A DNA stretch of 64,000 nucleotides. Source: Nitrospiria bacterium. GTDB lineage: Bacteria; Nitrospirota; RBG-16-64-22. Under the pieces are notes generated by a model. That model searched no databases, was not told the origin of the DNA, and saw only the letters and a program-made list of their open reading frames with translations. Positions within the stretch are counted from its first letter, which is position 1. Each line of letters opens with the position of its first letter. This document shows, piece by piece, positions 10,500 through 46,232 of the stretch. Location: the NCBI GenBank assembly GCA_919903025.1, contig CAKKSE010000008.1:16334-80333 (forward strand), in the 5' to 3' direction. The translations under genes and the position numbers were made by a program.

Positions 10500-11882
10500 T
10501 CAAGCCTCGTCGCGAACTTCGCTGTCGATTTCGATCCCGAGCGCCTTAATCTTCCTGTGCAGGTTGCTCCGCTCGATCTCCAGCTCCTCGGCCGTGCGGG
10601 AGACGTTCCCTTTGTTCGCCTTGAGCCGGTCGAGGATGTAACTCCGCTCGAACTCGGCCCGGGCCTCGCGCAAGGGCCCAACGGTCGGAAGCGCCGCGGG
10701 TGCCTGGGATCGGCCCCCCTCCTGTTCGACCAGAGGCGGAAGGTCGGACTCCCGAATCTCCGACTCCGGCGCCATGATGACGAGCCGCTCGACAAGGTTC
10801 TTGAGCTCCCGCACGTTCCCCGGCCAGCGATGCGCCGCGAGCTTCTTGAGCGCCTCCGGCGAGACCGTCTTCGGGCGCTTTCCGTAGTCTTCCGAGAACG
10901 CCTTGAGAAAGGCGCTGACCAGAAGAGGGATGTCCTCGGCGCGATCCCGCAGAGGCGGAACGTGGATGGGAACGACGGCGAGGCGGAAGTAGAGGTCGTC
11001 CCGGAATCGGCCCGCCGCGATCTCGGCCTGGAGGTCCTTGTTGGACGCGGCGATGACGCGGACGTCGACCCGCATCGTCTGCGTCCCGCCGACCCGCTCG
11101 AACGTCTGCTGCTCGAGGACGCGAAGCACTTTCGCCTGCGTGGCGAGGCTCATGTCGGCCACCTCGTCTAGGAAGATCGTCCCGCCGTCGGCCAGCTCGA
11201 ACTTGCCGGGTTTAGCCCCCGTGGCCCCGGTGAAAGCCCCCTTTTCGTGCCCGAAGAGCTCGCTCTCGATCAAGTCTTGAGGGATGGCCGCGCAGTTTAC
11301 TTCCACGAACGGGCGGCCGGCCCGGTCGGAGGCGGCGTGAATGGCGCGGGCGACGAGCTCTTTCCCCGTCCCGCTCTCGCCGGAGATGAGGACGCGTCCC
11401 CGCGACGGCCCGGCCGTCGCGATCTGCCGCTTGAGATCCTCCATCGCCGCGCCCCCGCCGACCATCTCGCAACGGGAGTCCACTTTCCGGCGGAGAGCGC
11501 GGTTCTCCGAGAGGAGGCGGGACTCGGAGGCGGCGTGCTGGATCAGGAGGACGATCTTCTCGTACGAGAGAGGTTTTTCGAGGAAGTCGTACGCCCCGAG
11601 CTTGGTCGCCCGGACGGCCGTCTCGATCGTCCCGTGGCCGGACATCATGATGACGGGAACGTCGGGGTACGACTCGCGGATCCGCTTCAGGGCCTCCATC
11701 CCGTCCATGCCGGGCATCCAGATGTCGAGGAGGACGGCCTGGGGCTGTTCCTCGCGGAGGATCGCGAGGGCCGCCGTTCCAGAATCGGCCGTGCGGACCC
11801 GGTACCCTTCGTCGCCCAGGACTCCCCTCAGGGATTCAAGGATGCTCGCTTCGTCGTCAACGACCAGAATCGTCTCGGGCAC
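10500..11882 (-). CDS. ntrX: Sigma-54-dependent response regulator (NtrC/NtrX family)
   Basis: REC domain (D52-like), AAA+ sigma-54 activator core (GESGTGKE, GAFTGA) and a C-terminal Fis-type HTH. Confidence 0.85.
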   Translation of the reverse strand: MPETILVVDDEASILESLRGVLGDEGYRVRTADSGTAALAILREEQPQAVLLDIWMPGMDGMEALKRIRESYPDVPVIMMSGHGTIETAVRATKLGAYDFLEKPLSYEKIVLLIQHAASESRLLSENRALRRKVDSRCEMVGGGAAMEDLKRQIATAGPSRGRVLISGESGTGKELVARAIHAASDRAGRPFVEVNCAAIPQDLIESELFGHEKGAFTGATGAKPGKFELADGGTIFLDEVADMSLATQAKVLRVLEQQTFERVGGTQTMRVDVRVIAASNKDLQAEIAAGRFRDDLYFRLAVVPIHVPPLRDRAEDIPLLVSAFLKAFSEDYGKRPKTVSPEALKKLAAHRWPGNVRELKNLVERLVIMAPESEIRESDLPPLVEQEGGRSQAPAALPTVGPLREARAEFERSYILDRLKANKGNVSRTAEELEIERSNLHRKIKALGIEIDSEVRDEA

Positions 11883-14254: not shown

Positions 14255-14920
14255 TCACGGCGTCTCCCGGCGGAGGGCGACAGCCAGCGGGCCCGGGGAG
14301 CCCGGGGAGAAGGACCCGGGCCCCCGGAACGATTGCGTCCCCTCCTTGAGCGTGAACTCGGGCGACGTCTTCCACGACGTGGAGAAGTCGTTGAACGAGA
14401 CGAAGAAGAGGATCGTCTCCAGGATGGCCGGAACGTTCGGCGTCCGCGACTCGGCCTTGAGCTGGATGTAGTACGGCTCGTTGGGCGCGAGGACCGAGCG
14501 GGGCGCCACGACGACGGACGCGAGCCGGCTCGTCCACACGAGCATCGGTGAAAACTCAGCGAAACTCTTCTCCTCGGAGCGCTCCCCGTCGCTCGCCCGG
14601 ACGGCGTAGAGCTTCTTGACCGAGTCGTACTTCACCTGCCGGAGGATCGTCCGCTGGGCGATGAATTCATCCGGCCACCAGTTGTACGACCGGTAGAGGT
14701 TGAGCGTATAGCGGAACTCCTTCGAGAAGCCGTTCTTGAGCGCCTCTTCGATCGCGGACGCGAACGGCCCCGTGAGCACCGCCGAGACGGCGACGCCCGA
14801 CGGCCCGATCGTCACGACGACGTTCGAGATCTGCTCGCCCTTCGCGAGCGCCGAGGCTGGAAAGAAGGGAACGAGGAGGGCGGAAACGGCAATCAAGAGG
14901 AGCGATCGAATTTTCGTCAT
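14255..14920 (-). CDS. Secreted DUF4390-like protein (commonly encoded upstream of ntrY)
   Basis: Signal peptide followed by a roughly 190-aa domain. Positionally conserved with NtrYX in several lineages. Confidence 0.45.
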   Translation of the reverse strand: MTKIRSLLLIAVSALLVPFFPASALAKGEQISNVVVTIGPSGVAVSAVLTGPFASAIEEALKNGFSKEFRYTLNLYRSYNWWPDEFIAQRTILRQVKYDSVKKLYAVRASDGERSEEKSFAEFSPMLVWTSRLASVVVAPRSVLAPNEPYYIQLKAESRTPNVPAILETILFFVSFNDFSTSWKTSPEFTLKEGTQSFRGPGSFSPGSPGPLAVALRRETP

Positions 14921-15073
14921 CCGTCCGGAACCGGTGATGGAAACGGGGAACCGACTGACCTAATTTTGCAACACTAGCACCCGATCAGCCGGTGTGTCAA
15001 GGGGCTATTTGTGTAAGTATTTGATTCTTCAATATTTTTCTTCTTCCCCGCTTCCCCTTCCCGTTTCCCCGTT

Positions 15074-16117
15074 TCAGTCCTTTCCCCGCCTCTTCGGATC
15101 CATGTGATCGCGGAGAGCGTCGCCCAGGAAGTTGAAAGCCATCACGGTGAGGAAGATAAGGAGCCCCGGGATGAGAAGCCACTGGAACCTGAGGAGGTAT
15201 TCCACGTTCTGCGCCTCGGCGAGAAGAAGTCCCCAGGAGGAATCCGGGTCCTTGATCCCCAGACCAAGGAAGGACAGGGCGCTCTCGCCCAGGATGTAGC
15301 CGGGGATCGAGAGCGTCGCCGAGACGACGGCGTAATTGAACGTCGAGGGGACGACGTGGCGGACGAGAACCCGGGCGCCCGAGGCGCCCATCGCCCGGGC
15401 GGCCAGGACGTACTCGCGCTCCCGCTCGGAGAGGACGAGACCGCGGACGATCCGGGCGAGCCCCGCCCATCCGATGAACGAGAGGATGGCGACGATCAGC
15501 AGGTAGGTGAGCGACGACGGAAGCGTCGCCGGGATGATCACGGCCAGGGCCAAGAGGAAGTAGAACGTGGGGAGAGACATGAGGATCTCCGTCGCGCGCA
15601 TGATGACGAAGTCCGTCCGTCCCCCGACGTACCCGGAGAATGCCCCGATCAGGATCCCCAGCGTGTAGCTGATTGCGACGCCCACGAGGCCGATGGAGAG
15701 GGAGATCCGGCCTCCATACACGAGGCGCGAGAAGAAATCGCGCCCCAGAGCGTCAGTCCCGAGGAGGAAGAGGCGGGCGTCCGGGTCGGCCGTCGTGAGG
15801 ACCTTGCCGCGCTTGAAGAACGAAAGGCGGATCCGCTCCTCCGTCTCTTCGTACCGGCGCTTCCGGATGTCGGCAAGCTTCGTCTTGTGGACGTAGAGGG
15901 GCCCCTCCGACCACTCGCCCGGGGGCGCGAGATGGACGCGCATCGGCGGATGGTGCGGGTGGCGGCGGTTCTGCGCCGCCGGATCGTACGGCGCGGCGAC
16001 CGGCGCGAAGAGAGCCGCCAGCGCAAAGGCGGCGAGAAGCGCGAGACTAACGCGCGCCGGCCAGCCGGCGGATATCCAGAAGTCAGTCATCTTTCCCGAC
16101 CGGTGATCGTTTCTCAA
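15074..16117 (-). CDS. ABC transporter permease, OppC/DppC family (binding-protein-dependent inner-membrane component)
   Basis: EAA-loop region and 6 TM segments. Long N-terminal extension as in YejE/OppC. Confidence 0.8.
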   Translation of the reverse strand: MRNDHRSGKMTDFWISAGWPARVSLALLAAFALAALFAPVAAPYDPAAQNRRHPHHPPMRVHLAPPGEWSEGPLYVHKTKLADIRKRRYEETEERIRLSFFKRGKVLTTADPDARLFLLGTDALGRDFFSRLVYGGRISLSIGLVGVAISYTLGILIGAFSGYVGGRTDFVIMRATEILMSLPTFYFLLALAVIIPATLPSSLTYLLIVAILSFIGWAGLARIVRGLVLSEREREYVLAARAMGASGARVLVRHVVPSTFNYAVVSATLSIPGYILGESALSFLGLGIKDPDSSWGLLLAEAQNVEYLLRFQWLLIPGLLIFLTVMAFNFLGDALRDHMDPKRRGKD

Positions 16118-16206
16118 ACACTCACGGCCCGCCTATTACACACTTATGCTCCCTCCTCCCGCTTCACATCCCGACAACGGTGCACCCGGGCGACAACCAC
16201 CCTTCT

Positions 16207-16497
16207 TCAAGCAGCCTTGGCCTTTGCGATCCGGAGTCTCACCATGAGACCGATCTGGGCCAGCATGGCAATGAGCGTGTCGACGCTGAAGACGTCGATT
16301 TTTCCGCGCATCAAGTCGCTGATCCGAGGCTGAGTGACGCCCAGACTCTTGGCGGCCTCGGCCTGGGTCATGCCCTTGCGGCGGATGTATTTCTCGATCT
16401 CGGCCATCAGCTCGGCTCGAACACGCAGGTTCTCCGCCTCTTCGCGCTCGAACCCAAGATCCTTGAAAACGTTCCCGGATGACCTCGTCATCTTCAT
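16207..16497 (-). CDS. higA: HigA-like Xre-HTH antitoxin
   Basis: GMTQAEAAKSLGVTQPRISDLMRGK is a Cro/C1-type HTH. Start at the internal Met gives an ATGA overlap with the upstream toxin. Confidence 0.7.
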   Translation of the reverse strand: MKMTRSSGNVFKDLGFEREEAENLRVRAELMAEIEKYIRRKGMTQAEAAKSLGVTQPRISDLMRGKIDVFSVDTLIAMLAQIGLMVRLRIAKAKAA

Positions 16498-16835
16498 GTT
16501 TTCTCCTTTCTCCATTTCAACAGACGCCAGAAGCGTTCGGCCGCAAGATCGATGTCGTGCTTGGGCGTTTTCCTGGTCTTCTTGCCGAAGGCATGCAGAA
16601 CGTAAACGGCCTCTTCGAACTTGGCCACGTAGAGGACCCGAACCTCGCTCCCCGCGTGCACCCGGATTTCCCGAACGCCTGGGCCGACGGCCGGCATCGG
16701 CTTCCAGTCGGTCGGTTCATCTCCGGCCTGAACTTTGAAGAGCTGATACCCGGCATCCTTCCGCGCGTCGGGCGGAAAATCTCTCAGATCGTCGAGCGTT
16801 GTCGCCACCCATACCAGCGGCTTCATGATATACAA
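16494..16835 (-). CDS. higB: HigB/RelE-superfamily toxin (Gp49-like)
   Basis: 113 aa in toxin-first order, as in HigBA. AT-rich promoter directly upstream (16840-16880). Confidence 0.7.
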   Translation of the reverse strand: MYIMKPLVWVATTLDDLRDFPPDARKDAGYQLFKVQAGDEPTDWKPMPAVGPGVREIRVHAGSEVRVLYVAKFEEAVYVLHAFGKKTRKTPKHDIDLAAERFWRLLKWRKEKT

Positions 16836-16975
16836 ATACTTATATATATGTCAATGAATCCGCCGTCAAGTCTCGGCGGGTCCGGTGACCCGCCCTACGA
16901 AATTCGTCCGCTCACCCGACCGTAGGGCGGCACACCGTGCCCGCCCAACACCATGCGCGCCGCCCGGCCGCCGCC

Positions 16976-17941
16976 TCACTCATACCGAATCCTCGGGTCG
17001 GCGAACTTGAGGGCGATGTCGGCCAGAAGATTGCCGACAATCAACAACACCGCGCCGATCAGGATCGAGCCCATGAGGAGGAAGAGGTCCTGGGAGAGGA
17101 CGGCCTGGAGCATCAGGTTTCCCATCCCTTGCAGGTGAAGGACCGCCTCCACCAGCGCCGCGCCGCCGAAGAGAGCGCCCAACTCGTACCCCGCGATCGT
17201 GATGAACGGGTTGATCGCATTCCGGAGGATGTGCTTGTAGACGACGGTCCGCTCCGGGAGCCCCTTCGCGCGGGCCGTCCGGACGTAGTCCGCGTTCATG
17301 ATCTCCATCACGTTCCCGCGCATGAGGCGCATGAGTCCCGCCACACCCGAAGTCCCCAGGACGACGACGGGCAGGATGAGGTGATGCACCCGGTCCCAGA
17401 TCTTCTCGAAGAACGAAAGCGTGTCGTAGTTCGGCGAGAACGAGCCGCCCGTCGGGAACCACCCCGTCTGGAGGGCAAAGATGAGAAGGAGGAGAGCGAA
17501 GAAGAAGGATGGGATCGACATCCCCATGAAGGCGAAGAACGAGAGGAGCCGGTCGGCCCACGTCCCAGGCCGGAGGGCCATGAAGAGGCCCAGGGGGACC
17601 GCAAGCCCCCAGGAAACGACCATCGCCGCGGCCGAGAGGATCACCGTGTTGGGGAGGAAGCGGCCGATCAGGGAGAGGACGTCCACGTGGTAGAAGATGC
17701 TCTCGCCGAAGTCGAGATGGAGCACCCGCCAGAGCCAGAGAAAATAGCGGATGACGAGCGGCTTGTCGAACCCGTACTTGGCCTCCATCGCCTGGAGCGT
17801 CTCGGGCGAGAACTGGGGGTTCATCTTGAGGGAAGTGAAAAAGTCGCCCGGCGCGAGATCCACAACAACGAACGAGATGAACGTGATCCCGATGATGAGC
17901 GGGACCGCGTTGACCAGGCGCCTTAGAACGTACCGGCCCAT
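16976..17941 (-). CDS. ABC transporter permease, OppB/DppB family
   Basis: N-terminal MGRYVLRRLVNAVPLIIGITFISF is a classic OppB start. EAA loop present. Confidence 0.8.
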   Translation of the reverse strand: MGRYVLRRLVNAVPLIIGITFISFVVVDLAPGDFFTSLKMNPQFSPETLQAMEAKYGFDKPLVIRYFLWLWRVLHLDFGESIFYHVDVLSLIGRFLPNTVILSAAAMVVSWGLAVPLGLFMALRPGTWADRLLSFFAFMGMSIPSFFFALLLLIFALQTGWFPTGGSFSPNYDTLSFFEKIWDRVHHLILPVVVLGTSGVAGLMRLMRGNVMEIMNADYVRTARAKGLPERTVVYKHILRNAINPFITIAGYELGALFGGAALVEAVLHLQGMGNLMLQAVLSQDLFLLMGSILIGAVLLIVGNLLADIALKFADPRIRYE

Positions 17942-17986
17942 CTCACATCACCCCAACGCTGCGGAGCCGCGCCCGGACAGACGCGG

Positions 17987-19471
17987 CTACTCCTCTCTCA
18001 GGCTGTAGGCAAAATCGTTGTAAGCCATGAGCGTGATGATCGTTGATATCCTCACCCTTCTGTCGAACACCCACGGCAGGATCTTGAAGATGAACTTGAT
18101 CCGCTCCAGGTCGCGCGTCAGAAGATACGTCATCAGCCTCGCGGCAAAGAGCACCCTGTATTTCGCCTTGATCGGATTTCTCCTGTTCTGCTCCCGCCAG
18201 AAGTCCTTCTCCCAGAAATACTTGAGTTTCCTGTAGATGGACGCGAACGAATAGACCTCTCTCCACACGCGGACAAAGCCCTTCTTGAGTTCGGCGGGCG
18301 TCATGTTTCTTGGCTTGAAAACGACCGTCTTGGAATCGTATCGGTCCCAGTCCTTGTGCAACAGCCGGCCTTCCTTCTCCATCCTGTCGAAGAGGCCGGT
18401 GCCGGGGAACGGCGTCAGGATGCTGACGAGCGCGAAGAGCACGTTGTTGCCGTTGATGAACTCGGCCAGTCCGCGAAACGTCTCCTGGGTGTCGTTGTCA
18501 TGGCCCACGATGAAAGCGCCTTGAACGAGAATGCCGTGGGAATGGATCTTCCCGATCGCTTCGCTGAAGTCCTGCCTCAGATTTATCTTCTTGTTCATCT
18601 GCCTCAGGGTGTCGGGGGTGATGGATTCGAAGCCGATGAGGATCCCGCCGCACCCGCTCTTCGCCATGAGACCCAGAATCTCGTCGTTCCGGGCCACGTT
18701 CAGGCTCGCCTGGCACGACCAGCTCACGTCCAAGGGAGCCAGTTCCTCAAGAAACGCCTTCGCGTACCTTCTGTCCGCGACAAGGTTGTCGTCGGCGAAG
18801 AAGATCGCCTTCTTCCTCTCGAGGATGCCGTCCAGCTGAGTCTCACGGATATCGTTCATCACCTGCTCCAGGGAGCGGTGCCGGATCCGGGTCCCGTCGA
18901 ACGCGTGGACCGAGCAGAAATCGCAGAAGAACGGACATCCCTTTGTCGTCTGGACGATGTGCAGAAGGTACCTGTCGTTCTTGAGGAGGCGCCGGTCGGG
19001 CATCGGGCATTCCGCGAGATTGGGGTGGCCTGGGCTTCTGTAGATCGGCTTGAGCCGGTTGTTCCTGAAATCCTCCAGCAGATCCCCCCAGACCCCTTCC
19101 GCCTCGCCGATCACGACGCTGTCCGCGTGCCGGCACGCCTCCTCCGGGAGCATGGAGGCGTGAATCCCTCCCAGGACCACCTTGACGCCCCGCGCGCGGA
19201 ATTGCGATGCAATCTCGTACGCCCGCTTCGCGAACATCGTGCGAACGCTGATGCCGACGAGGTCCGCCGGCGCGTCGAAATCGATCGGCTCCACGTTCTC
19301 GTCCACGACCGTGACGTCGACGTCCGGCGGGGTGAGCGCCGCCAGCGTGGGAATGGCCAGGAGGTAGCCCGAGTACGCCTTCGAGAATATGAACCGGGCC
19401 ACGTACCTGTAGTCGTAGATGTTCTTTTCGTTGTCCGTTCCCTGCCGTGGGGTAATCAGCGTCAGTCTCAT
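17987..19471 (-). CDS. B12-binding radical SAM protein (class B) with a C-terminal DUF4070-like extension
   Basis: N-terminal cobalamin-binding Rossmann region, CPFFCDFC (CxxxCxxC) radical-SAM cluster motif, and a C-terminal roughly 100-aa basic/aromatic domain. Its start codon shares a nucleotide with the upstream substrate-binding-protein (SBP) stop. Confidence 0.8.
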   Translation of the reverse strand: MRLTLITPRQGTDNEKNIYDYRYVARFIFSKAYSGYLLAIPTLAALTPPDVDVTVVDENVEPIDFDAPADLVGISVRTMFAKRAYEIASQFRARGVKVVLGGIHASMLPEEACRHADSVVIGEAEGVWGDLLEDFRNNRLKPIYRSPGHPNLAECPMPDRRLLKNDRYLLHIVQTTKGCPFFCDFCSVHAFDGTRIRHRSLEQVMNDIRETQLDGILERKKAIFFADDNLVADRRYAKAFLEELAPLDVSWSCQASLNVARNDEILGLMAKSGCGGILIGFESITPDTLRQMNKKINLRQDFSEAIGKIHSHGILVQGAFIVGHDNDTQETFRGLAEFINGNNVLFALVSILTPFPGTGLFDRMEKEGRLLHKDWDRYDSKTVVFKPRNMTPAELKKGFVRVWREVYSFASIYRKLKYFWEKDFWREQNRRNPIKAKYRVLFAARLMTYLLTRDLERIKFIFKILPWVFDRRVRISTIITLMAYNDFAYSLREE

Positions 19472-21201
19472 CAGTACGCGAGCCTCATCTTATCCGGGTC
19501 GGGCGTCCCCCAGATCGTGGGATTGTACCCGAGCACGCGGTTCTTGTGGGCGACGAAGACCGACTCCCGGGCCGTGAGGATCACCGGAAGCTCTTCGTGC
19601 AGGATCTCCTGGATTCTTTTGTAGTACTGCGGCCTCTTCTTCGGGTCGAGCTCCCGCGCCCCGAGGTCGATCAGCCTGTCGATCTCCGCCTCCCACGCCG
19701 TCTCAGGCTTGGCCTGCCGCGGGTTCCACATGTGGAGATGGCCGCTCGACTTGTAGAAGGTCGAGCCCCAGTGCGGCTCCAGCCCCCCCGTCAGGCCGAT
19801 CAGGATCGCGTCCCACTCGAAGTTGCTGTCGAGCTTCTCGACAAGCGTATTGAATTCGAGCGGCTTGTAGTTGACCTTGAGCCCGAGCTTCTTCCAGTCC
19901 TCGAGGACGATCGCCGCGATCCGTTCGCGCGTCCGGTTCCCCTGGTTCGTGTAGAGGTCGAACGAGACGGGATTCCCGTTCGGGTCCTCGCGGATCTTGT
20001 CCCCGTCGCGGTCCCGGTACCCGGCCTCGTCGAGAAGTCTCTCCGCCTTCTTGAGATCGTACTCGTAGTCCTTGATGGCGGCGTTGTGGAACCTCTTGAC
20101 CTCTGGAGAGATGTCAGCCACAGCCGGCTCGCCGTACCCGCGGAACGCGTTGAAGACGATCGTCTCCTTGTCCACGGCGTGGGCCAGCGCCCGGAGGAAC
20201 CTCTTGTCCGTGAACCAGTCGAGGCGCGGATCGCGCTTCCCGCCCTTCACGTAGTGCCGGGGGTTCCGGTTGAAGGCGATGAACGGCGTCCCCGTGGAAA
20301 GCCCCAGCTCCTTCAGCGTCCAGTCCCTCGCCCGGGCCTTCCCGCGAATGGTCTCGACCATGTCGGCCGAGGGGCCGTAGATGTCCGTGTCCCCCGCGTC
20401 GAACTTGACGTAGGCCGTGTTGATGTCCTTCACGATCAGGAGGACGCGCCGCTTGACGTACGGAAGCCGCTCTCCCTTCTCGTCCGTCCGCCAGTAGCGG
20501 GGATTGACCTCGTACAGGACGTGCTGGGCGGGAACGTACTTCGTGATGAGGTACGGCCCCGTTCCGGCAAGCTCTTCCGGGGGCGTGTTGATGTTCCAGG
20601 CCGAGTCGAACTTCCCGGCGTCCAGCGCCGCTTCGAGCTTGTGCCTCGGCAGAATATCCACCTGCACGATGTCGAGGAACGGCGCGAAGGGAAAGGGAAG
20701 CGTGAACGTGACCGTGTGCCGATCGGCCGCCTTCACGATCATCTTCCCCCCCTCGATCATCCAGGCGTCCCGGATCGAGGAAGCGACCTTGGGGTCGTAG
20801 ATCGCCCGCGCCGTGAAGACGACGTCCTCGGCCGTGAACGGCACGCCGTCGCTCCAGAGAACGTCCTTGCGGAGCCTGAAGGTCCACGTCCGGCCGTCGG
20901 GCGAGACGGACCACGACTCCGCCAGGACGGGCTCGAAGTCGGTCGTGACGGGATCGCGCCGGATGAGCCCCTCGAAGAGGATCCCCGCGACGGCCGACGA
21001 CGACGTCTCCTTCGAGACGATCATGTTGAAGGTCTTGGGGTCCCCCAGCGTGTCGGTCGTGAGCGTGGGCGGAAGCTCCACCCGCTCCGCCTTGCCCGAG
21101 CAGGCGAGAAGAAGGGCAAACAGCGGAATGTAAGCGAACCGGGGAACGATCGTAATTCTGCGCACGGCGCGCATAATACCATAGTGAGAGCGCATTGCCA
21201 C
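19471..21201 (-). CDS. ABC transporter substrate-binding lipoprotein, family 5 (oligopeptide/dipeptide/nickel type)
   Basis: Lipobox LLLACSG and an SBP_bac_5 domain over about 520 aa. The start could be one of several N-terminal Mets. Confidence 0.8.
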   Translation of the reverse strand: MAMRSHYGIMRAVRRITIVPRFAYIPLFALLLACSGKAERVELPPTLTTDTLGDPKTFNMIVSKETSSSAVAGILFEGLIRRDPVTTDFEPVLAESWSVSPDGRTWTFRLRKDVLWSDGVPFTAEDVVFTARAIYDPKVASSIRDAWMIEGGKMIVKAADRHTVTFTLPFPFAPFLDIVQVDILPRHKLEAALDAGKFDSAWNINTPPEELAGTGPYLITKYVPAQHVLYEVNPRYWRTDEKGERLPYVKRRVLLIVKDINTAYVKFDAGDTDIYGPSADMVETIRGKARARDWTLKELGLSTGTPFIAFNRNPRHYVKGGKRDPRLDWFTDKRFLRALAHAVDKETIVFNAFRGYGEPAVADISPEVKRFHNAAIKDYEYDLKKAERLLDEAGYRDRDGDKIREDPNGNPVSFDLYTNQGNRTRERIAAIVLEDWKKLGLKVNYKPLEFNTLVEKLDSNFEWDAILIGLTGGLEPHWGSTFYKSSGHLHMWNPRQAKPETAWEAEIDRLIDLGARELDPKKRPQYYKRIQEILHEELPVILTARESVFVAHKNRVLGYNPTIWGTPDPDKMRLAY

Positions 21202-21344
21202 CCACGGCCGTTCACCACGGCCGTTCGATTCTGCATTCCCTTCACCCCCACCCTGGCCCTTGTATCTTGTCCAAGGGGGTCTGGGTCATAGACAATGGAA
21301 CCGTTCTTTAGCCAAGGCGTGGCAGATCGTCCTTGCCCCCCCCC

Positions 21345-21424
21345 GTCAAGGGGGAGGAAATTCCTGAAGCACCGACTTGCTCTTTTCCTCCCCCCTTGAG
21401 GGGGAGGAATAAGGTGGGGGGGGG
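21345..21424. repeat. G-rich hairpin element (CCTCCCCC-loop-GGGGGAGG family), two adjacent units
   Basis: CAAGGGGGAGGAAA ... TTTCCTCCCCCCTTGAGGGGGAGGAA read directly in the divergent promoter region. Confidence 0.5.
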
Positions 21425-21458
21425 TGATTCACCTTTTTCTGTGCTATACTTCCCGCCC

Positions 21459-22937
21459 ATGTCATCCCCGCGAACGTTCAAACTCCTGTACAAGATCGTC
21501 GGCCTCGTCATCATTATTGTGGCCGCCATCGCCGCGGCCTCCTACGCCGTCTCCGCCACCCGGGAAGAGAGGATCAAGCGGGAGGAGCAGGAGCTCCAGA
21601 TGTACAAGATGGCGAACATCATCGCCTCCCTCAAACTCATCGAGCCGGTCACCGGCCGGAACATCGACTGGGGAATCTACCAGAAGTTCGTGGACATCAC
21701 TGGAAGCCTCGACCCGGACATCGTTGCGATCGCCGTCATGGACGGGGCGAACAGCATCAAGGCCTACTGGGCGGAAGAAAACCGGTTCAAGACCGCGAAC
21801 CCCCAGGCCGCCCTGGACTTGAAGAGCGCCCTCCGCTCCGCCGTCGCCCAGGGAAAGCTCCGCTCCCGGGAAGGGGACCTCGTGACGGTGGACTCTCCGA
21901 TCGCGGTGGACAACCGCCCCGTCGCGCTCATCCGGATCGTCTTCTCCCAGACGCGCATGAAGGAAGACGTCGCGCGGAACAGGCGGACCAGCCTCAACAT
22001 CGCGCTCGGCGTCCTGGGACTCGGCATCTTGGGCGGAATCGTCCTGGCGCGCGGCGTGACGCGACCGCTCGAAAACCTCGCCGGCAAGATGCAGAAGGTC
22101 GCCGCGGGCGACTTCTCGGAACGGATGACGTCTTTCCCGCGGGACGAGGTGGGGATGCTCGCCCGCACGTTCAACGGAATGGTCGACGGGCTCGTCGAGC
22201 GGGACCGGATCAAGGCCGAGCGGGACCGGCTGGAAGTGGAGAAAGCGCGCTACCGCGATACCCTCCAGCGGTACGTCTCCCGCCAGGTGGCGGATCGGAT
22301 CCTGAGCGAGCACGGGACGCCCTTCCTCAAGGGAGAACGGCGGGACGTGACTATCCTCTTCTCGGACATCCGCGGCTTCACGCGGATGTCCGAGCGGATG
22401 CAGCCCGAAGAGGTCGTCCTGCTGTTGAACGAATACTTCTCGCTCATGATCGACATCGTCTTCAAGTACGACGGGATGCTCGACAAATTTATCGGGGACT
22501 GCGTGATGGCCGTCTTCGGCGCGCCGGAAGGGCACCCGGACGACGCCATCAGGGCCGTCCGGACGGCCCTGGAGATGAGGGACGCGGTCCGCCGGTTCAA
22601 CGACCGCCGCGCCAAGGAGGGTAAGGAGATGATCCAGGCCGGGATCGGGATCAACTCCGGCCAGGCCGTGGCGGGGAGCATCGGCTCCCTGGAGCGGATG
22701 GAGTACACGGTCATCGGCGACAACGTGAACCTGGCGAGCCGCCTCACGTCGAGCGCCGTGAGCGGGCAGATCCTGATCAGCGAGCAGACGTACAGGAAGG
22801 TCGGGAATTACGTCCGGGCGGCGAAGCTCCCGTCGATCCAGGTCAAGGGGAAGGAAGCGCTCGTGGACATTTACGAAATCGAGGACCTCGCGGCGGCCGA
22901 GACCGTCGCGATGCCCGGAGGAGGTCAGCGACAATGA
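21459..22937 (+). CDS. Membrane adenylate/guanylate cyclase with HAMP domain (class III CHD)
   Basis: One TM segment, a periplasmic-type region, a second TM segment, HAMP, then CHD with FSDIRGFT...GDCVMAVFG...NLASRL metal and substrate residues. Start trimmed to the Met at 21459. Confidence 0.8.
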   Translation: MSSPRTFKLLYKIVGLVIIIVAAIAAASYAVSATREERIKREEQELQMYKMANIIASLKLIEPVTGRNIDWGIYQKFVDITGSLDPDIVAIAVMDGANSIKAYWAEENRFKTANPQAALDLKSALRSAVAQGKLRSREGDLVTVDSPIAVDNRPVALIRIVFSQTRMKEDVARNRRTSLNIALGVLGLGILGGIVLARGVTRPLENLAGKMQKVAAGDFSERMTSFPRDEVGMLARTFNGMVDGLVERDRIKAERDRLEVEKARYRDTLQRYVSRQVADRILSEHGTPFLKGERRDVTILFSDIRGFTRMSERMQPEEVVLLLNEYFSLMIDIVFKYDGMLDKFIGDCVMAVFGAPEGHPDDAIRAVRTALEMRDAVRRFNDRRAKEGKEMIQAGIGINSGQAVAGSIGSLERMEYTVIGDNVNLASRLTSSAVSGQILISEQTYRKVGNYVRAAKLPSIQVKGKEALVDIYEIEDLAAAETVAMPGGGQRQ

Positions 22938-23866
22938 TGCGTTGGATGGGCGTGATCGCCGTATCGGCCGGACTGGTCTTTTCCCAGGGATGCGGGAAAA
23001 AAGAGGAAGACAAGAAGATCACGATCGAGTTCAACGTGAAGAAAGAGGAGGCCCAACCTCCCGAGAAAGCGGAGGAGAAAAAGGTCGCCGCCGCACCCGC
23101 TCCGACCGTGCCTTCGGGGCCTGCCCCGACTGTGCCTTCGGGGCCGGCTCCCGCTCCCCAGCCTCCGCCGGTCGCGCCTCCCAAGGCCGAAGTGAGAGAG
23201 GCGCCGCCGTCTCCGGCCGCGGCGCCCAAGACCGAGCCAAGACCCGAACCCAGGCCCGAAAAGAAGAAAGAAGAAGGACGGGTCGCCGCCATCGCGCCCA
23301 AGGCGCCGCCGCCGCCCAGGCCCAAGCCTGTCAACCTTCCGGACGATTTCCTCAACAAGGAAGTCTACGTCCGCACAACCCTCCACGCCTTGAAGAACAA
23401 GCTTTTCTGGCAGAATTTCCTGTCGGGCACGCCGATCGTCCCGGGAACGCCCGCGACGATCACGCTTGTGAAGGGAGGCGCGGCGGTCGTCACGATCAAC
23501 GGCGTCCCGCACAAGTTCGCCTTCTCGGGACACAAGGCGGAGCCCCGGCCGGCCGTAATGCTCTCGAAGTTCTTCTCCCCCGCCGACCCGGCGAAAGTCC
23601 TAACGCCCGAGGACCTCAGGGCGTCCCGGGAGCCCGAGGCCAGGCCCGGCATGTCGAAGACAGCCGTCCTCGCTCTCTACGGCGTACCGTACGCCGTGGG
23701 CGCGAACGAGAACCCCACGGGGATGCTGGCCCTCGACGAGATCCACAAGGACACCCGGTGGGTCTATCTCGTGACGAAGAAGGAGAAGCTCGTCATTGTC
23801 TTCAGCAACGGCAGGGTCTCCGGAGTGCAGAAGGGGAGCCCGAAGGGACGAGTCGAAGCGCCGTGA
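22934..23866 (+). CDS. Lipoprotein with Pro/Ala-rich linker (paralog 1)
   Basis: Lipobox FSQGC, repeated PAPTVPSGPAP units, and a C-terminal globular domain. ATGA overlap with the cyclase stop. Confidence 0.55.
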   Translation: MMRWMGVIAVSAGLVFSQGCGKKEEDKKITIEFNVKKEEAQPPEKAEEKKVAAAPAPTVPSGPAPTVPSGPAPAPQPPPVAPPKAEVREAPPSPAAAPKTEPRPEPRPEKKKEEGRVAAIAPKAPPPPRPKPVNLPDDFLNKEVYVRTTLHALKNKLFWQNFLSGTPIVPGTPATITLVKGGAAVVTINGVPHKFAFSGHKAEPRPAVMLSKFFSPADPAKVLTPEDLRASREPEARPGMSKTAVLALYGVPYAVGANENPTGMLALDEIHKDTRWVYLVTKKEKLVIVFSNGRVSGVQKGSPKGRVEAP

Positions 23867-24588
23867 AGAGCGGCCGCTTTATCGCCCCTCTTCTCCTTCT
23901 CGCCCTCGCCTCCTTCCCCGCCTGCGGCGAGAAGAAGGAAGAGGACAAGAAGATCACGATTCAGTTCAACGTCTCGAAGGAGACGGAGGAGAAGAAGAGC
24001 GAGACGGCCCCCGGGGCGCCGCAGAAGCCGCCCGCTCAGGCGGGAGCGCAAACTGCGCTCGCCCCGGCGGAACGCAAGGTTTCCCCCCAGCCCCCCGCTG
24101 TGCGGGGCGCCAAAGCAGCCGCCCGCGCGCCCCTGCCGCCTGAGGCCCCTGAAGCCAATGAAGTCAAAGAAAAGATCGAGGCCGCGAAGCGCGCTCTCGA
24201 TCAGCGGCAGGCGGCCGAGGCGATCCGGCTCCTGAACGAAGCCAAGCGGCTAGCCCCCGATCATCCCCGTCTTTACCCGATGCTCGCCCGCGCCCACCAG
24301 ATGAACCGGGACCGGGAAGGAGCGCGGGCCGCAATCCAGGAAGGCCTCGTTCGGAACCCGGACAACGCGCTCCTTCTCTATCTGCGCGGGTTCCTTTACC
24401 ATCGGGAAGGAAACGCCCATCTCGCCCGGCAGGACCTTCGACGGGCGCTTGAGATCGACCCGAACCTTCCGATGGCTCAGCGGGCCCGCCAGACGCTCCA
24501 GGATATCGAGGAAGGCAAGCCGCCCCGCCGTCCGGCCGCCCGCAGGCAAGGCCCCGGGGGAGGCCCGCCCGGAGTTGACGACTTCTGA
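23863..24588 (+). CDS. Lipoprotein with TPR-like repeats (paralog 2; GTG start overlapping the previous stop)
   Basis: MKSGRFIAPLLLLALASFPAC lipobox. Shares the CG(E)KKEEDKKITI(E/Q)FNV N-terminus with paralog 1. C-terminal TPR-like helices. Confidence 0.5.
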   Translation: MKSGRFIAPLLLLALASFPACGEKKEEDKKITIQFNVSKETEEKKSETAPGAPQKPPAQAGAQTALAPAERKVSPQPPAVRGAKAAARAPLPPEAPEANEVKEKIEAAKRALDQRQAAEAIRLLNEAKRLAPDHPRLYPMLARAHQMNRDREGARAAIQEGLVRNPDNALLLYLRGFLYHREGNAHLARQDLRRALEIDPNLPMAQRARQTLQDIEEGKPPRRPAARRQGPGGGPPGVDDF

Positions 24589-24654
24589 AGCCCCGGGTAA
24601 GATGGGTTTTGCCTTTGCCGGGCGCTTGGCCCGGCCTTCCACGGAGACGCCGCA

Positions 24655-29971: not shown

Positions 29972-30070
29972 GGGAGCGGCTCGGTCACTGGTGGACCGCT
30001 AGGTCTTCAAAACCCATGTGGGGTGCTGAGAGGCGCTCCAGGTGGGTTCGATTCCCACACGCTCCCGCCA
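29972..30070 (+). tRNA. tRNA-like gene with selenocysteine-tRNA architecture (UCA anticodon, long extra arm), a candidate selC or a pseudo-tRNA
   Basis: Hand-folded from the sequence. The 7-bp acceptor GGGAGCG/CGCTCCC is followed by a G8·A mismatch abutting the T-stem, giving 8/5 geometry. The D-stem is CGGTC/GACCG. The anticodon arm has loop CTTCAAA, identical to the E. coli tRNA-Sec loop. The extra arm is an 8-bp stem (3 G·U pairs) with a GAGA tetraloop. The T-arm is GTGGG-TTCGATT-CCCAC, with G73 and an encoded CCA. Total length is 99 nt. Confidence 0.45.
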
Positions 30071-30399: not shown

Positions 30400-32619
30400 C
30401 TACTCAAACTCGATCTTTACATCGTTGGAGAGGTTCAGATCGGCCAGAATCTGCTGAAGTTCGGTCTGCAGGGACCGGGCCGAATCTGCGCTGGTGGTCA
30501 CCGAGAACTCTACACCGATACGCAGATCGGAGCCCGATCTGAGCTTCGGAATGATCTTGGTTCCCAGCCTGTTCCAGTGCTCCGGAGGGATCGTGCCGAC
30601 CACTCTGAGCGTCCGCGTTTCCTGAGCAGGTCCCTTTGTAATGCCGGGAAGCGACGTGAGTATTTCCGGTTCCGCCTCGGGTAGACGTTCCGGCCCTTTC
30701 ACGACGACCCCAACCTTCAACGCCTCGGCCCTCGCCTTCGTCAGGAGGAAGACCCCGCTGTCGAACACAATCTCCTCCGGCGCGACAACCTCCTTAAACC
30801 AGACCCTCTCGTATTCTCCATCCGTCCTCAATCCCGACGCCAGGCCCAAGCTTCCCTTGTCCACGAACTCAGAGATCTTGCTCCTCAAGACCTGTTCGGG
30901 ATCCACGAGACGGGTCAGCGCCCCGGTCAGAAAACTCTGGCGGAGGCTCGCCAGCGGCCAGGCACTGGTTTCCTTGAAAGCGGGCGGCCAGTTCCGCTCT
31001 ATGCAGCCGGCTCCCACGGATTCGTTTAGAAGCGAGTATGACTTGAGAGCGGAGATAATCCGGCCGGCCAGCGTCTCACTGGCGCTCGCGTGTCCCGCAC
31101 CGAGGTCAATGATTTTGAGCCCGCTTGCTTCACCAGGATCCGCAAGCGCCACGCACCGATAGCTGGCCCATACTTCGGCCTTTGCGGACTCCTCGGCGTC
31201 CCTGACGCGCGTGTGCAGTTCAAGCCGGTCGGACCGGTCGAAGTCGCCGCCCAGGATGCCTTCATCCACGTCTCTTTTCACGCGCCTCCAAGCGAGCCAT
31301 GTCTCGACCTTCTCGCGGAGGTCCCGGCCGGGCTTCTTGACGCACCAGACGAGCGCCGCTGGATACAGCCGGTCGGAAGACCCCCGCCTCTTCGTCCACT
31401 CAAGAACCCTCTTTGGCACGTCCCCTTTCGCTTCCCACTCGATCTCCGGAGACGTAACCACGAGTGTCAGCCTGGGGGAATCCTGGATTTCAGACGCATC
31501 CGCCGGAAAGGGGGCCCAGGAGATGCTTCGCCCCCGGTCGAATTCGACTTTGACAACCAACTCCATGGCAGGCCGGATTTCGTTCTCCTCGTCAAGAGAG
31601 GCCCGTCTGTCGCTCACGACCTTCTTCAAAGTCGGCAGGTAGCCGATCCGAAAGCCATCGGTTCCCGCCTTCCGTACGTAGTAGGCTTTCGACTCGAGCG
31701 CCAGGGCGGCAGTGTCGATGGATGTCGTGTCGGTCCCTGGCTCGCCCAGGGCGAACCTCAGCTCCGGGAGATGTGCGACCCGGTCCAGTTGTCCCCCGGA
31801 CGATTCGAAGAGAATGGCTGTCGCTACCCGCCTATGAATGCCGCGCAGCAACCCCTTGGCATCCGCATCGAGCACGCGGGTATGCGCGTTGGCGCCGGCA
31901 ATGTCGGTATCGATCGCGGCGACCAGGCGGGATTCTCCCAGTTGACCGAGCACGATGCTTCGGAACTCCGGTACTTCGAGCGGCGCCGAGCCGAGAGTAA
32001 TTAGCGGCTCTGTTCTTGCCTTCTGGAAGCCTTCCCGCCAGTCGCAATGCACATAGATGCTTCCATCATCCGCCAACAAATCACGCATCAACACCAATCT
32101 CTCGTAGATCATGGCTATAAAGGAATCTGCGCCCTTCCCCCACGTATCGCGGTAGGCGAGTTCTTCGAGAATGCTCGGCTTCTTGGTAAAGGTGTCGTCG
32201 CCAATTTCGATGTCCATCGAGAAGTCCGCGCCCACGTCGAACGGCGGATCGATGTAGATCAGCTTGATGCCGCCCTGCTTCTCGATTTCCTCATGCAACG
32301 GACCATTCTTGAGGCTGGCGAGAATCAGCTTGTTGTCGCCCCAGATCAGCTTGTTGGTCCAGCCCTTGAGCTGCCGCCCACTGGCGGGGTCGAACAGGTC
32401 GCCCTGAATCTTTACGTCCTTCTCCGCCCGCGGCTCGTCCACCTGCTCGATAGTCTGAAACGGCAGCACCACATTGCAGACCCCATTCGTTTTGCCGTTC
32501 CATACCAACTCCACCTCGCGCTTCTCCTCGAACAATAGAAAGCGGTACTTCTCCGGCAGCGGCTTGCCGGCCTCCAGCAGTTTCACAATGTCGCGGATTT
32601 CGTTGTCGGTTAGCTTCAT
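30400..32619 (-). CDS. Mod-like N6-adenine DNA methyltransferase-domain protein with a roughly 480-aa uncharacterised C-terminal region (canonical FxGxGTT motif I not evident)
   Basis: N-terminal 200 aa include NKLIWGDNKLILASL and GGIKLIYIDPPF (motif IV, DPPY-type), then SIYVHCDWR. This matches the beta-class Mod/N6_N4_Mtase order. The start overlaps the stop of the upstream ATPase (ATGA). Confidence 0.6.
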   Translation of the reverse strand: MKLTDNEIRDIVKLLEAGKPLPEKYRFLLFEEKREVELVWNGKTNGVCNVVLPFQTIEQVDEPRAEKDVKIQGDLFDPASGRQLKGWTNKLIWGDNKLILASLKNGPLHEEIEKQGGIKLIYIDPPFDVGADFSMDIEIGDDTFTKKPSILEELAYRDTWGKGADSFIAMIYERLVLMRDLLADDGSIYVHCDWREGFQKARTEPLITLGSAPLEVPEFRSIVLGQLGESRLVAAIDTDIAGANAHTRVLDADAKGLLRGIHRRVATAILFESSGGQLDRVAHLPELRFALGEPGTDTTSIDTAALALESKAYYVRKAGTDGFRIGYLPTLKKVVSDRRASLDEENEIRPAMELVVKVEFDRGRSISWAPFPADASEIQDSPRLTLVVTSPEIEWEAKGDVPKRVLEWTKRRGSSDRLYPAALVWCVKKPGRDLREKVETWLAWRRVKRDVDEGILGGDFDRSDRLELHTRVRDAEESAKAEVWASYRCVALADPGEASGLKIIDLGAGHASASETLAGRIISALKSYSLLNESVGAGCIERNWPPAFKETSAWPLASLRQSFLTGALTRLVDPEQVLRSKISEFVDKGSLGLASGLRTDGEYERVWFKEVVAPEEIVFDSGVFLLTKARAEALKVGVVVKGPERLPEAEPEILTSLPGITKGPAQETRTLRVVGTIPPEHWNRLGTKIIPKLRSGSDLRIGVEFSVTTSADSARSLQTELQQILADLNLSNDVKIEFE

Positions 32620-35297: not shown

Positions 35298-35377
35298 AGG
35301 AAACGCTGCTGGTTAGTAGTGCGTAAGCCTACAATCGCGGAATCTTCCGATGTTTTCGATACTGATAAATTTCTCAA

Positions 35378-36676
35378 TCATGGCTCACCGCTCTTGTCCG
35401 GCACCGCGTCTATGGGAGTAGATGCCTCAAGTGCCTTCATTTCCAGACCTTCGATCTCCTGCAACGACTTGCCCGCGATGCCTTGCAGGTCCCCATACAT
35501 TCCGACGGTTGACTGCATGACGCGGTCGATCTGCTCCTCGCGCTTGGCCCACTGCTTGGTGATCGCCTTCCTCTCCTTGTCGAGGTCTTCCTGCATGTTG
35601 GAAAACGCTTCGACGATGGCTTCCACCCTCTGGCGGAAGCGCGGGCCGGTGAGGTACTGGTAGATCATTTCCGTTTTTGTTTGCTGGCCTTCGGATGCCT
35701 GCCGCGCTATGGTGATTTCCAGCAACGACTGGCGAAGGATTACCGCCACCGGCAATGCAACGCGGGGGTGTGTTACCCAGACGCCCTCAACCATCTCGAA
35801 GGTTTCAACCCCTTTCGGCAAACTCTGGCTTACAATCACGGCGATTTCAGCTTTTGCGGTGCGTTGGTCTTCCCGCAATTTGGTCAGCCATGCGTCGCTC
35901 CAGTTTTTGGTGCGCTTGGACTCCCACAGGATGGTGCCGCTGGCCTGGCCGCCCGAGCCGACAACACGGTGCACCACATCCCCGCCGTATTCGCCCTTGG
36001 GCACGGGCTCGATAACATCGAAAGGGAATTTAGTGCGCAACAGACTTTCTAGTTCCAGTTCCTGCACTTCGCCCTGCAATTGCTGCGAGCCTTGTTCAGC
36101 CTTGCGTTTCAGGTCTTCAATCTGTTTCTGCATCGCGGCGATGATCTGTTCTTTCTCCATCACCTTAAGCTTCTGTTCGTCTTCGACCTCCTTGCGCGCC
36201 TGGACACGGGTAGCGGCAAGCCCTTCCTGAATCCGCTTCTCGATGGTCAGTTCTATTTCACGTCGGGCATCATCAAGCTCGCGCTGTTTGCGGATCAGGT
36301 CAGCCTGTGCCTTCTGCGCCTCGGCGAGTTTCACGTCCCGTTGTTTCAGCACTTCTTGCAGATCGGCAAGCTCCTTGCTCTTCTGATCCAGATCGTTCGC
36401 CAGCGCTAATTTGGCTTTCTTGGCTTCCTCCGCGGCGATCTTGGCGCGTTCCTGCCGAACCTTCTCGGCGACCTGATCGTCGATGGTGTCTTTCGCCTTG
36501 GTGAGTGCTTCTTCACGCTCACGGAGCGACGATTCGCGGCTGGCAATGTCAGCGTCTTTCTTTGCCAGGCGCTGCTCATAGTCACGGCGAGTGGATTCAA
36601 TGAGTGGCGCCGCCAGTGATTCCGTGAGTTTGATCTCGGTTTTGCACTGCGGGCAGACAATAGTTGGTTCTGTCAT
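35378..36676 (-). CDS. DUF2130-family protein (N-terminal CPxC zinc ribbon, long coiled coil, conserved C-terminal domain)
   Basis: MTEPTIVCPQCKTEI..., then KE-rich coiled coil, then a C-terminal globular domain of about 200 aa. Own AT-rich promoter region at 36680-36750. Confidence 0.55.
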   Translation of the reverse strand: MTEPTIVCPQCKTEIKLTESLAAPLIESTRRDYEQRLAKKDADIASRESSLREREEALTKAKDTIDDQVAEKVRQERAKIAAEEAKKAKLALANDLDQKSKELADLQEVLKQRDVKLAEAQKAQADLIRKQRELDDARREIELTIEKRIQEGLAATRVQARKEVEDEQKLKVMEKEQIIAAMQKQIEDLKRKAEQGSQQLQGEVQELELESLLRTKFPFDVIEPVPKGEYGGDVVHRVVGSGGQASGTILWESKRTKNWSDAWLTKLREDQRTAKAEIAVIVSQSLPKGVETFEMVEGVWVTHPRVALPVAVILRQSLLEITIARQASEGQQTKTEMIYQYLTGPRFRQRVEAIVEAFSNMQEDLDKERKAITKQWAKREEQIDRVMQSTVGMYGDLQGIAGKSLQEIEGLEMKALEASTPIDAVPDKSGEP

Positions 36677-36755
36677 CGACCTCTCCTTAACTCACTGAAA
36701 TTCGCTTTCCGAAATCAATTCCGGGAATCTTATAAAATTCTTCCTGACTCGGCGG

Positions 36756-37100
36756 TTACCTGTATTCGATACAAATTGCTATCCCCGCCACGATCTCCTC
36801 CATCAGCGGTTCGGGGAGCTGCCCCAGCTTCTTGACCAAACGGGTTTGGTCAACGGAACGGACCTGGAACGTATCCGCCCCCGACTTCTTGGTGAGGCCG
36901 TTCTGTTTGTCAGGTTCAAGGTAAATCATCCACGGGTAGCCGGCATATGGCGGTTTCCAGTCCGTGATGGGGACGATGATCTTCAAAGGCAGTTTGCCAA
37001 TGCTGTTGGAACTCACCACGACGGCGGGCCGGGTCTTCTTGATTTCCTGTCCAATGGTCGGATCGAGATTGACCAGCCACACCTCTCCACGGTCAATCAT
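36756..37100 (-). CDS. MazF/PemK/Kid-family toxin (mRNA interferase)
   Basis: GEVWLVNLDPTIGQEIKKTRPAVVVSSNSIGKLP is the PemK signature. Overlaps the upstream gene by a few codons. Confidence 0.75.
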   Translation of the reverse strand: MIDRGEVWLVNLDPTIGQEIKKTRPAVVVSSNSIGKLPLKIIVPITDWKPPYAGYPWMIYLEPDKQNGLTKKSGADTFQVRSVDQTRLVKKLGQLPEPLMEEIVAGIAICIEYR

Positions 37101-38295: not shown

Positions 38296-38307
38296 TCGAC
38301 CTCCGGT

Positions 38308-38390
38308 AGGTTGACGGAAAGGATTAGATTGACGAATTCGTCAACAGTTGACAGAATAACAAATAAGTTCCGTATTGTCAACCCATTGTC
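38308..38390. promoter_or_regulatory. Divergent promoter/operator region: perfect 16-bp palindrome TTGACGAATTCGTCAA plus inverted GTTGACA...TGTCAAC half-sites
   Basis: Read directly: palindrome at 38329-38344, GTTGACA at 38347-38353, TGTCAAC at 38376-38382, a further TTGAC at 38311. AT-rich. Confidence 0.5.
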
Positions 38391-38393
38391 GAG

Positions 38394-38576: not shown

Positions 38577-38627
38577 GATTTCGCACAAGCAGCCCCCCCG
38601 GACAAGTTCTCTCCCGGCCTCATGGTT

Positions 38628-38773: not shown

Positions 38774-38905
38774 GGGGGGGTTGCGGGGTTGTCGGTGGGC
38801 AGTGTCCGCGTCCGGCTCACGGCTCGCACCGCTAAAGAAAGTTCGAGCCTCGGTTAAGATGGTCCCGCCAGAGTCGTTGGGAGGAAGCGGTCAGGGTCCG
38901 CCCCG

Positions 38906-46220: not shown

Positions 46221-46232
46221 CCGGCTCTCATC

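Follow-up and report, generated by a model that had tools for sequence, protein, structure and literature searches.

A probable ATPase-less PepT-family importer operon carrying a radical SAM gene and a HigBA cassette in an uncultured Nitrospirae-labelled lineage

Results

An importer operon with two additional modules

We analyzed a 64-kb stretch of contig CAKKSE010000008.1 from a Nitrospiria bacterium (hereafter the window; locus coordinates are positions in it), which holds a transporter operon of six genes. All lie on the minus strand, in the order substrate-binding protein (SBP), radical SAM enzyme, OppB-like permease, HigB, HigA and OppC-like permease (Table 1). Gene identities were assigned from Pfam and NCBIfam profile scores; Pfam support is strong for the six genes, and their content and order agree with an initial annotation made from the sequence. 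As argued below, we consider it likely that the locus is an ordinary ATP-binding cassette (ABC) importer operon of the PepT family, of a known kind that lacks ATPase genes, and that it has received two independent, lineage-restricted insertions, namely the radical SAM gene and the HigBA cassette.

The same lineage is represented by contigs L121 (99% nucleotide identity to the window), L005 (92-95%), L009 (“Nitrospirae bacterium RBG_16_64_22”, 90-93%) and L008 (“Nitrospirae bacterium NC_groundwater_891”). L008 and L009 are mutually closest, with 95-96% nucleotide identity. The initial annotation needed adjustment at two start codons, since higB starts at ATG 16826 and not at TTG 16835, and oppC at ATG 16090 and not at TTG 16117.

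Table 1 Features of the importer locus and its flanks, listed from the upstream side of the operon
Feature	Position in window	Strand	Support or remark
HAMP-adenylate cyclase gene, divergent, upstream of SBP	21459-22937	+	
SBP_bac_5 lipoprotein	19471-21201	-	PF00496, E 1e-82; probable start ATG 21174
Class B radical SAM enzyme, B12-binding + Radical_SAM + DUF4070	17987-19471	-	PF04055, PF13282, PF02310
GC-rich hairpin spacer between radical SAM gene and oppB	17942-17986	-	Window; different form in L005
OppB-like permease	16976-17941	-	PF00528 + PF19300
Palindromic element resembling a repetitive extragenic palindrome or miniature inverted-repeat transposable element (REP/MITE-like), ~70 nt, in the oppB-higB spacer	16875-16945	-	Inverted repeat, RNA fold z = -3.2
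Promoter/operator-like AT-rich segment just 5' of higB	16825-16869	-	TTGACA-18-TATCAT, 11/12
HigB-like toxin, Gp49, RelE/ParE superfamily, 110 aa	16494-16826	-	PF05973, E 1e-26
HigA-like antitoxin, HTH_37, XRE-type, 96 aa	16207-16497	-	PF13744, E 8e-25
OppC-like permease, 338 aa	15074-16090	-	PF00528 + PF12911
DUF4390	14255-14920	Same strand as operon	
NtrY	12015 to about 14219	Same strand as operon	
NtrX-like sigma-54 activator	10500-11882	Same strand as operon	

The core genes belong to the PepT class

The first gene encodes a family-5 SBP (PF00496 score of 278 bits against a cut-off of 32) with the lipobox LLAC, whose cysteine, residue 34 of the 576-aa open reading frame (ORF), is nearly invariant among 24 homologs. 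Together with OppB and OppC permeases of the BPD_transp_1 type, this places the system among the PepT-family (Opp/Dpp/Nik-type) importers. EAA-type coupling loops are kept in both permeases, and the loop of the OppB-like protein reads ADYVRTARAKGL...LRNA..P. The EAA-loop motif is well established, and loops of this type contact the nucleotide-binding domains of the transporter.

The importer had initially been described as peptide-type, a term that we keep as a family label and not as a ligand assignment. None of the NCBIfam transporter equivalogs (Opp4A/B/C, NikA/B/C, DppA-C, GsiB-D, CntA/C) was reached at its cut-off at this locus; the best scores were 186 against 650 for Opp4A, 281 against 450 for Opp4B and 269 against 350 for Opp4C, and the NikA, NikB and NikC models were also among the better matches, all under their cut-offs. 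In alignments to DppA (5f1q, 8z1z), the SBP has GLTGG opposite the GWTGD of DppA, so that the Asp position is occupied by Gly; at least 90% of the family members share Gly472. This Asp of DppA is, we take it, the anchor of the peptide alpha-amino group. The relatives of the SBP in the PDB bind peptide, nickel, heme or oligosaccharide.

The importer operon lacks linked ATPase genes

No OppD/F-type ATPase gene was found in the 64 kb, either by a scan for Walker-A and signature motifs or by tblastn with seven OppD/F proteins from related loci, which confirms the initial annotation for the region after the permeases. The sole ABC ATPase of the window (about 46164-48236) is an ABC-F protein, Uup/EttA-like and ribosome-associated, and not a transporter subunit. 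Since the operon lies mid-window, flanked by the divergent adenylate cyclase gene and DUF4390, its ATPase genes have not merely been cut off by the window edge. The loci of L005, L008, L009 and L121 have the same layout, likewise without OppD/F-type ATPase genes. In more distant relatives (L029 and L030/L031/L037, with 57-59% SBP identity), SBP-oppB-oppC operons stand between opposite-strand flanks, with no ATPase gene within at least 6.7 kb.

Across the SBP family, 33 loci could be assessed by homology, using tblastn with the same seven OppD/F queries. At 20 of them oppD/F directly follow oppC, and 13 have no such gene within at least 2.5 kb. A regular expression for Walker-A and LSGGQ was rejected for this count, because it missed the OppD of L039; its 19/15 became 20/13 with tblastn. 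Loci without ATPase genes are dispersed across a neighbour-joining tree of the SBPs, and L009, which is without HigBA, is also without ATPase genes. The idea that the absence of ATPase genes is located at, or caused by, the insertion of the toxin-antitoxin pair is thus not borne out, since some of the 13 ATPase-less loci carry no HigBA. The ATPase-less state predates the HigBA insertion.

We compared the window with L005, L008 and L009. The ratios of nonsynonymous to synonymous substitution rates (dN/dS) were 0.03-0.25 for the operon genes and lowest in the permeases (OppB 0.04-0.16; OppC 0.03-0.06). For SBP, OppB and OppC, dN/dS was 0.03-0.17 at dS 0.14-0.35. These low ratios indicate that the genes are functional, and that the ATPases are therefore probably supplied in trans. 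The transporter is most likely energized by OppD/F-type ATPases of another locus. This agrees with the earlier suggestion that the permeases depend on ATPases encoded elsewhere, to which both the lack of an ATPase gene at the locus and the strong purifying selection on the permeases point.

The same values bear on the possibility that the locus is a decaying remnant, in which an importer lost its ATPase genes, was then disrupted by insertions and is no longer functional. The missing ATPase genes would fit such a history, as would the two foreign insertions inside the operon and the intergenic spacers, which differ among strains. However, all ORFs are intact and full length relative to their homologs, the three transporter genes are under the selection described above, the junctions are still tightly coupled, and distant lineages have kept the same three-gene layout without ATPase genes. 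We regard decay as highly unlikely.

A non-transporting role was also considered, in which the SBP-permease complex would act, independently of any ATPase, as a co-sensor for the adjacent DUF4390-NtrY-NtrX two-component system. In all same-lineage contigs these genes come next after oppC, at a distance of about 150 nt and in the same orientation. In contrast, other ATPase-less members of the family have unrelated, opposite-strand neighbours, and between the transporter and the DUF4390-NtrY-NtrX genes lie a spacer and a promoter-like sequence. As both permeases also keep the loops that contact nucleotide-binding domains, we consider the co-sensor extremely unlikely.

A radical SAM gene at a probable ancestral stop/start junction

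The radical SAM gene encodes a class B enzyme, with an N-terminal B12-binding domain and the sequence CPFFCDFC at residues 179-186, which has the CxxxCxxC form. PF04055 scores 63 bits, and PF02310 is marginal, with 33.2 bits against a cut-off of 32.1. Assignment to a named subfamily (HpnJ, BchE, MgmA, PhpK, HpnR, ApyD) was rejected, as the NCBIfam scores are 4-5 fold under the cut-offs (the best being HpnJ 112/578, BchE 98/481 and MgmA-type 83/360). The protein falls within a large uncharacterized family of ~490 aa with DUF4070, which has more than 4000 matches at 54-57% identity in metagenome-assembled genomes (MAGs) labelled Deltaproteobacteria, Nitrospirae and Planctomycetes. Among solved structures, MgmA/QCMT, the MCR (methyl-coenzyme M reductase) glutamine C-methyltransferase (PDB 9ccb), comes nearest, at an E value of only 3e-16; like the protein studied here, it combines an N-terminal B12-binding domain with a CxxxCxxC radical SAM core.

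The stop codon of the SBP gene and the start codon of the radical SAM gene have one base in common, TGATG (TACTGATGAGA). This overlap is present in the window, as the initial annotation had noted. The nearest outgroup with a similar GC content is L032 (SBP 68% identical, GC 0.655), in which the SBP gene is directly coupled to oppB through TACTGATGGGC. The one-base overlap is probably an inherited, ancestral SBP/oppB junction that did not evolve for the radical SAM gene, because the SBP/oppB junction of L032 has the same TGATG overlap (TACTGATGGGCCGC). Nor is the overlap between the SBP and radical SAM genes conserved even inside the lineage: L008 and L009 have TAGCCATG upstream of the radical SAM gene and TGAGATG downstream. 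From the junctions of L032 and of L008/L009 together we conclude that the radical SAM ORF occupies the ancestral stop/start junction exactly, hardly any other sequence having been added.

The window and L005 (1808-1862) have an extra GC-rich hairpin spacer of 42-55 nt between the radical SAM gene and oppB, with different sequences in the two. The spacer folds no better than shuffled sequences, and its sequence is unique in the window. It is missing in L008 and L009, where a single base separates the two genes.

Among the relatives examined, the arrangement of SBP followed by radical SAM gene occurs only in the shallow lineage of the window, that is, in the window, L005, L008, L009 and L121. 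Outside this lineage, neither the radical SAM loci (about 20) nor the SBP loci (about 80) showed the pair; of 80 SBP-family loci from metagenomes, a single contig has the radical SAM gene, and it is identical to L009. In SBP orthologs at 57-68% identity (L029, L030/L031/L037, L032), oppB is the gene immediately downstream. The next relatives of the radical SAM protein (~80% amino-acid identity) come from about ten contigs of 41-45% GC, from Deltaproteobacteria-labelled MAGs, and no transporter genes were found near them. They lie in a conserved cluster that encodes a SurA-like protein, prolyl-tRNA synthetase (ProRS), DUF3343/Se_S_carrier, a CxxC...CxxC ORF of 51-53 aa, the radical SAM protein and glutamyl-tRNA synthetase (GluRS); the genes from ProRS to GluRS are seen, for example, in L006 (7829-12891) and also in L001-L004, L007 and L010-L015. 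Homologs at 55% identity stand alone, in varying contexts.

This proS-gltX cluster could hint at the real function of the radical SAM enzyme, which may, for example, concern a zinc-ribbon protein of small size or a substrate linked to translation. ProRS, GluRS, DUF3343 and the small CxxC ORF are absent from the window.

The initial annotation had taken the junction as a hint that a modified peptide or cofactor is taken up, and had asked whether the radical SAM gene is always linked to the SBP. It is not, as the linkage is missing in every relative examined outside the shallow lineage, and the proposed hint loses its ground. In its strongest form, such a coupling would mean that the transporter brings in a substrate (peptide, cofactor or metal complex) which the radical SAM enzyme modifies or needs, the overlap being selected for co-translation. 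The overlap itself is real, and each of the five contigs of the lineage retains the gene as part of the operon and under purifying selection. Uptake of Ni/Co complexes is known for some family-5 systems, and the sub-cut-off matches to NikA/B/C would be in keeping with this. The comparative evidence points the other way: the two genes are unlinked outside the lineage, and the overlap, replaced by TAGCCATG in L008 and L009, probably descends from the SBP/oppB junction. Moreover, neither a cobalamin or NiCo riboswitch nor another Rfam element was found at the locus, by a gathering-threshold scan of the whole window and a scan at E<=1 over 14800-21600; the sole Rfam matches at the gathering threshold were tRNA-Sec and one tRNA, both away from the locus. 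There is also no precursor-peptide-sized ORF or other maturation gene, and the intergenic spacers are short. We consider this coupling unlikely. That the gene was recruited because its product acts on or depends on the imported substrate (for example by C- or P-methylation of a small molecule that is taken up, or through a cobalt/corrinoid-linked supply) appears very unlikely.

A reading of the locus as a cluster for a peptide made by the ribosome and modified after translation (RiPP) was also rejected, there being no small precursor ORF, protease or exporter, and intergenic spacers that are too short.

The radical SAM gene has a GC content of 0.59. Recent horizontal transfer, for which this low value might speak, was rejected, because the low GC mostly reflects amino-acid composition, and GC at third codon positions (GC3) is 0.85 against 0.88-0.91 for the neighbours. 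An older transfer, from the group of 41-45% GC that holds the 80% orthologs, may have occurred.

A HigBA cassette between the permease genes

Between oppB and oppC, higB is followed by higA. As in HigBA modules, the gene of a RelE/ParE-superfamily toxin lies upstream of the gene of a helix-turn-helix (HTH) antitoxin and overlaps it, with the higA start on the higB stop (ATGA). Matches in the PDB are weak but specific to HigB and HigA (2a6c and 6af3_B for HigA), and the similarity of HigB to characterized HigB is remote (E 0.0025). About 8000 homologs of HigB were found across phyla, thousands of them at 60-68% identity, and toxin-antitoxin islands in unrelated genomes contain Gp49-HTH_37 pairs that overlap in the same way. 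GC3 of the HigBA genes is 0.72-0.79 (HigB 0.72), against 0.88-0.91 for the neighbours.

The oppB-oppC spacer of the three HigBA-bearing genomes has a length of 885 nt (window), about 730 nt (L005) and about 670 nt (L008). L009 and the outgroup L032, which have no HigBA genes, show spacers of 34-73 nt and about 30 nt, respectively, and spacers of 120-240 nt, also without HigBA, were found in L029 and L030. Operons that lack higBA thus exist both in the lineage (L009) and in outgroups (L029, L030, L032), and the closely spaced permease genes of L009 and L032 uphold the earlier view that the pair was inserted between them. The cassette is thus polymorphic, being present in some strains and absent in others. 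L008 and L009 differ in HigBA, mutually closest as they are, and therefore either the cassette was gained a single time and then lost in L009, or it was moved by recombination. In L008 (5509-5790), HigB has lost 16 codons (WVATTLDDLRDFPPDA) in frame close to its N-terminus, and HigA is intact; to judge from this deletion, the L008 toxin may be inactivated.

The window carries a promoter-like sequence before higB, TTGACA-18-TATCAT (16854-16825), which matches the consensus at 11 of 12 positions and whose -10 box overlaps the higB ATG. The AT-rich segment 5' of higB is conserved in all three HigBA-bearing genomes. Of the “own AT-rich promoter” claimed for the pair by the initial annotation, the AT-rich promoter-like sequence exists, and its function is predicted from the consensus match. 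Intrinsic terminators gave 8 matches against 6.0 +/- 2.6 in shuffled sequences, none of them at gene junctions. The higA-oppC spacer folds no better than shuffles. As cassette and operon share one orientation and terminators do not exceed chance, read-through into oppC and/or transcription of oppC from the higBA promoter is plausible.

These features could also be taken to mean that HigBA has rewired the operon, with oppC expressed mainly from a HigA-repressed higBA promoter, which would place permease stoichiometry and transport under toxin-antitoxin control. Consistent with this are the conserved promoter-like sequence, the orientation of the cassette, the shortness of the higA-oppC spacer in L005 and L008 (about 20 nt) and, in the window strain, the strongly folding palindromic element after oppB. 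However, no intrinsic terminator beyond chance lies at oppB-higB or higA-oppC, L009 works without the cassette, and the deletion in the L008 HigB suggests that the module is dispensable or decaying. Such rewiring seems improbable to us.

The REP/MITE-like element (GGGCGGGCACGGTGTGCC..CCCTACG ... CGTAGGGCGGGTCAC..CCCGCC) has a second copy at 54365-54430, which gives at least two copies in the window. Of these, the one between oppB and higB is strain-specific and is lacking at this place in L005 and L008.

Other features of the window

At 21331-21414, between the divergent adenylate cyclase and SBP genes, runs of C and G build nested palindromes and direct repeats, for example TTCCTCCCCC-TCAA-GGGGGGAGGAA; they could have a regulatory or structural role. 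A strain-level indel lies beside the adenylate cyclase gene, in which about 1.6 kb of the window (23043-24627) corresponds to about 100 nt in L121. The indel includes part of an ORF without a Pfam match (22934-23866) and neighbouring sequence. The tRNA-Sec (29972-30066; 70 bits in Rfam) is followed by a region (30400-38900) with few high-GC3 ORFs, which holds a 739-aa ORF with a weak, sub-cut-off match to a DNA methylase. An island may have integrated here beside tRNA-Sec. The match between L121 and the window ends at about 30070, and the ~80 bases of L121 that are left have no counterpart there.

Discussion

Our model suggests that the core of this locus is a three-gene operon of the PepT (Opp/Dpp/Nik-type) class, encoding a binding lipoprotein and the OppB-like and OppC-like permeases. 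In this lineage the operon would never have had linked ATPase genes, and its two nucleotide-binding subunits would come in trans from another Opp/Dpp-type locus. Two unrelated insertions would then have occurred in the shallow, “Nitrospirae bacterium RBG_16_64_22”-like lineage. In one, a complete B12-radical SAM ORF would have been inserted exactly at the ancestral TGATG between the SBP gene and oppB, where it would ride on the transcription and translational coupling of the operon. The comparative sequence data do not support a joint function, and nothing in them appears to tie the radical SAM enzyme to the transporter. In the other, a self-contained HigB/HigA (Gp49/HTH_37) cassette with its promoter-like sequence would have entered the short oppB-oppC spacer in the same orientation, and oppC could still be expressed through read-through and/or the higBA promoter.

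An operon of this kind has been described in Listeria, where ctaP-ctpP1-ctpP2 is without ATPase genes and needs OppDF; the Ctp system is homologous to the Gsi glutathione importer of E. coli (10.1101/2023.10.16.562582). Like Ctp, the operon studied here has a binding protein and two permeases and no dedicated ATPase genes. It is maintained by selection. In Listeria the ATPases are supplied in trans from another locus, whereas here we infer such a supply. Unlike Ctp, the present operon carries a radical SAM gene and a HigBA cassette, and it belongs to an uncultured, Nitrospirae-labelled lineage. In Borrelia burgdorferi, the OppB1C1 and OppB2C2 permease pairs and five OppA proteins share one common OppDF pair (PMC5736914), and the multitask nucleotide-binding domains MsmX/MsmK serve sugar importers (PMC7658222). 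In both cases one set of ATPases serves several permease complexes encoded elsewhere, which is the principle that we propose here; in Borrelia this sharing has been studied experimentally, whereas at this locus we infer it. The carbohydrate importers served by MsmX/MsmK presumably form a different family, CUT1.

The predicted HigBA module resembles known ones, such as S. pneumoniae HigBA (PDB 6af3), in that the toxin gene is upstream, the genes overlap by ATGA and the Pfam families match. It differs from them in lying inside a transporter operon and not in a toxin-antitoxin island or prophage, and in its remote similarity to characterized HigB.

Several observations weigh against the interpretation that we favour. 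The trans-acting ATPases were not found in the 64 kb of the genome covered here. HigBA is present in three genomes and missing in L009, the closest relative of the HigBA-bearing L008. The statements on the higBA promoter and on read-through come from consensus scans. Finally, the radical SAM gene is tightly packed in the operon in all five contigs (0-2 nt upstream, 1-55 nt downstream) and is under purifying selection (dN/dS 0.11-0.18). Because of this packing and selection, its co-expression with the transporter could be selected and not accidental. If recruitment of the enzyme to the imported substrate were true, a new uptake-plus-modification pathway would be seen emerging in this shallow lineage.

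If our favoured reading of an importer operon with two independent insertions is correct, the importance of the locus beyond annotation hygiene is small. It offers a clean natural example of two insertions within one operon, with an empty-site relative for the toxin-antitoxin pair and outgroup junctions free of the radical SAM gene. It also illustrates that a one-base stop/start overlap and membership in an operon, taken alone, are no evidence of functional coupling, as the overlap here would predate the inserted gene. About two in five operons of this SBP family have no linked ATPase genes, a frequency that is useful for reconstructing transport from fragments of uncultured Nitrospirae- and Deltaproteobacteria-labelled genomes. 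As a lesser novel point, trans-energized PepT importers may be very common in this SBP family of uncultured bacteria, at about 40% of its loci.

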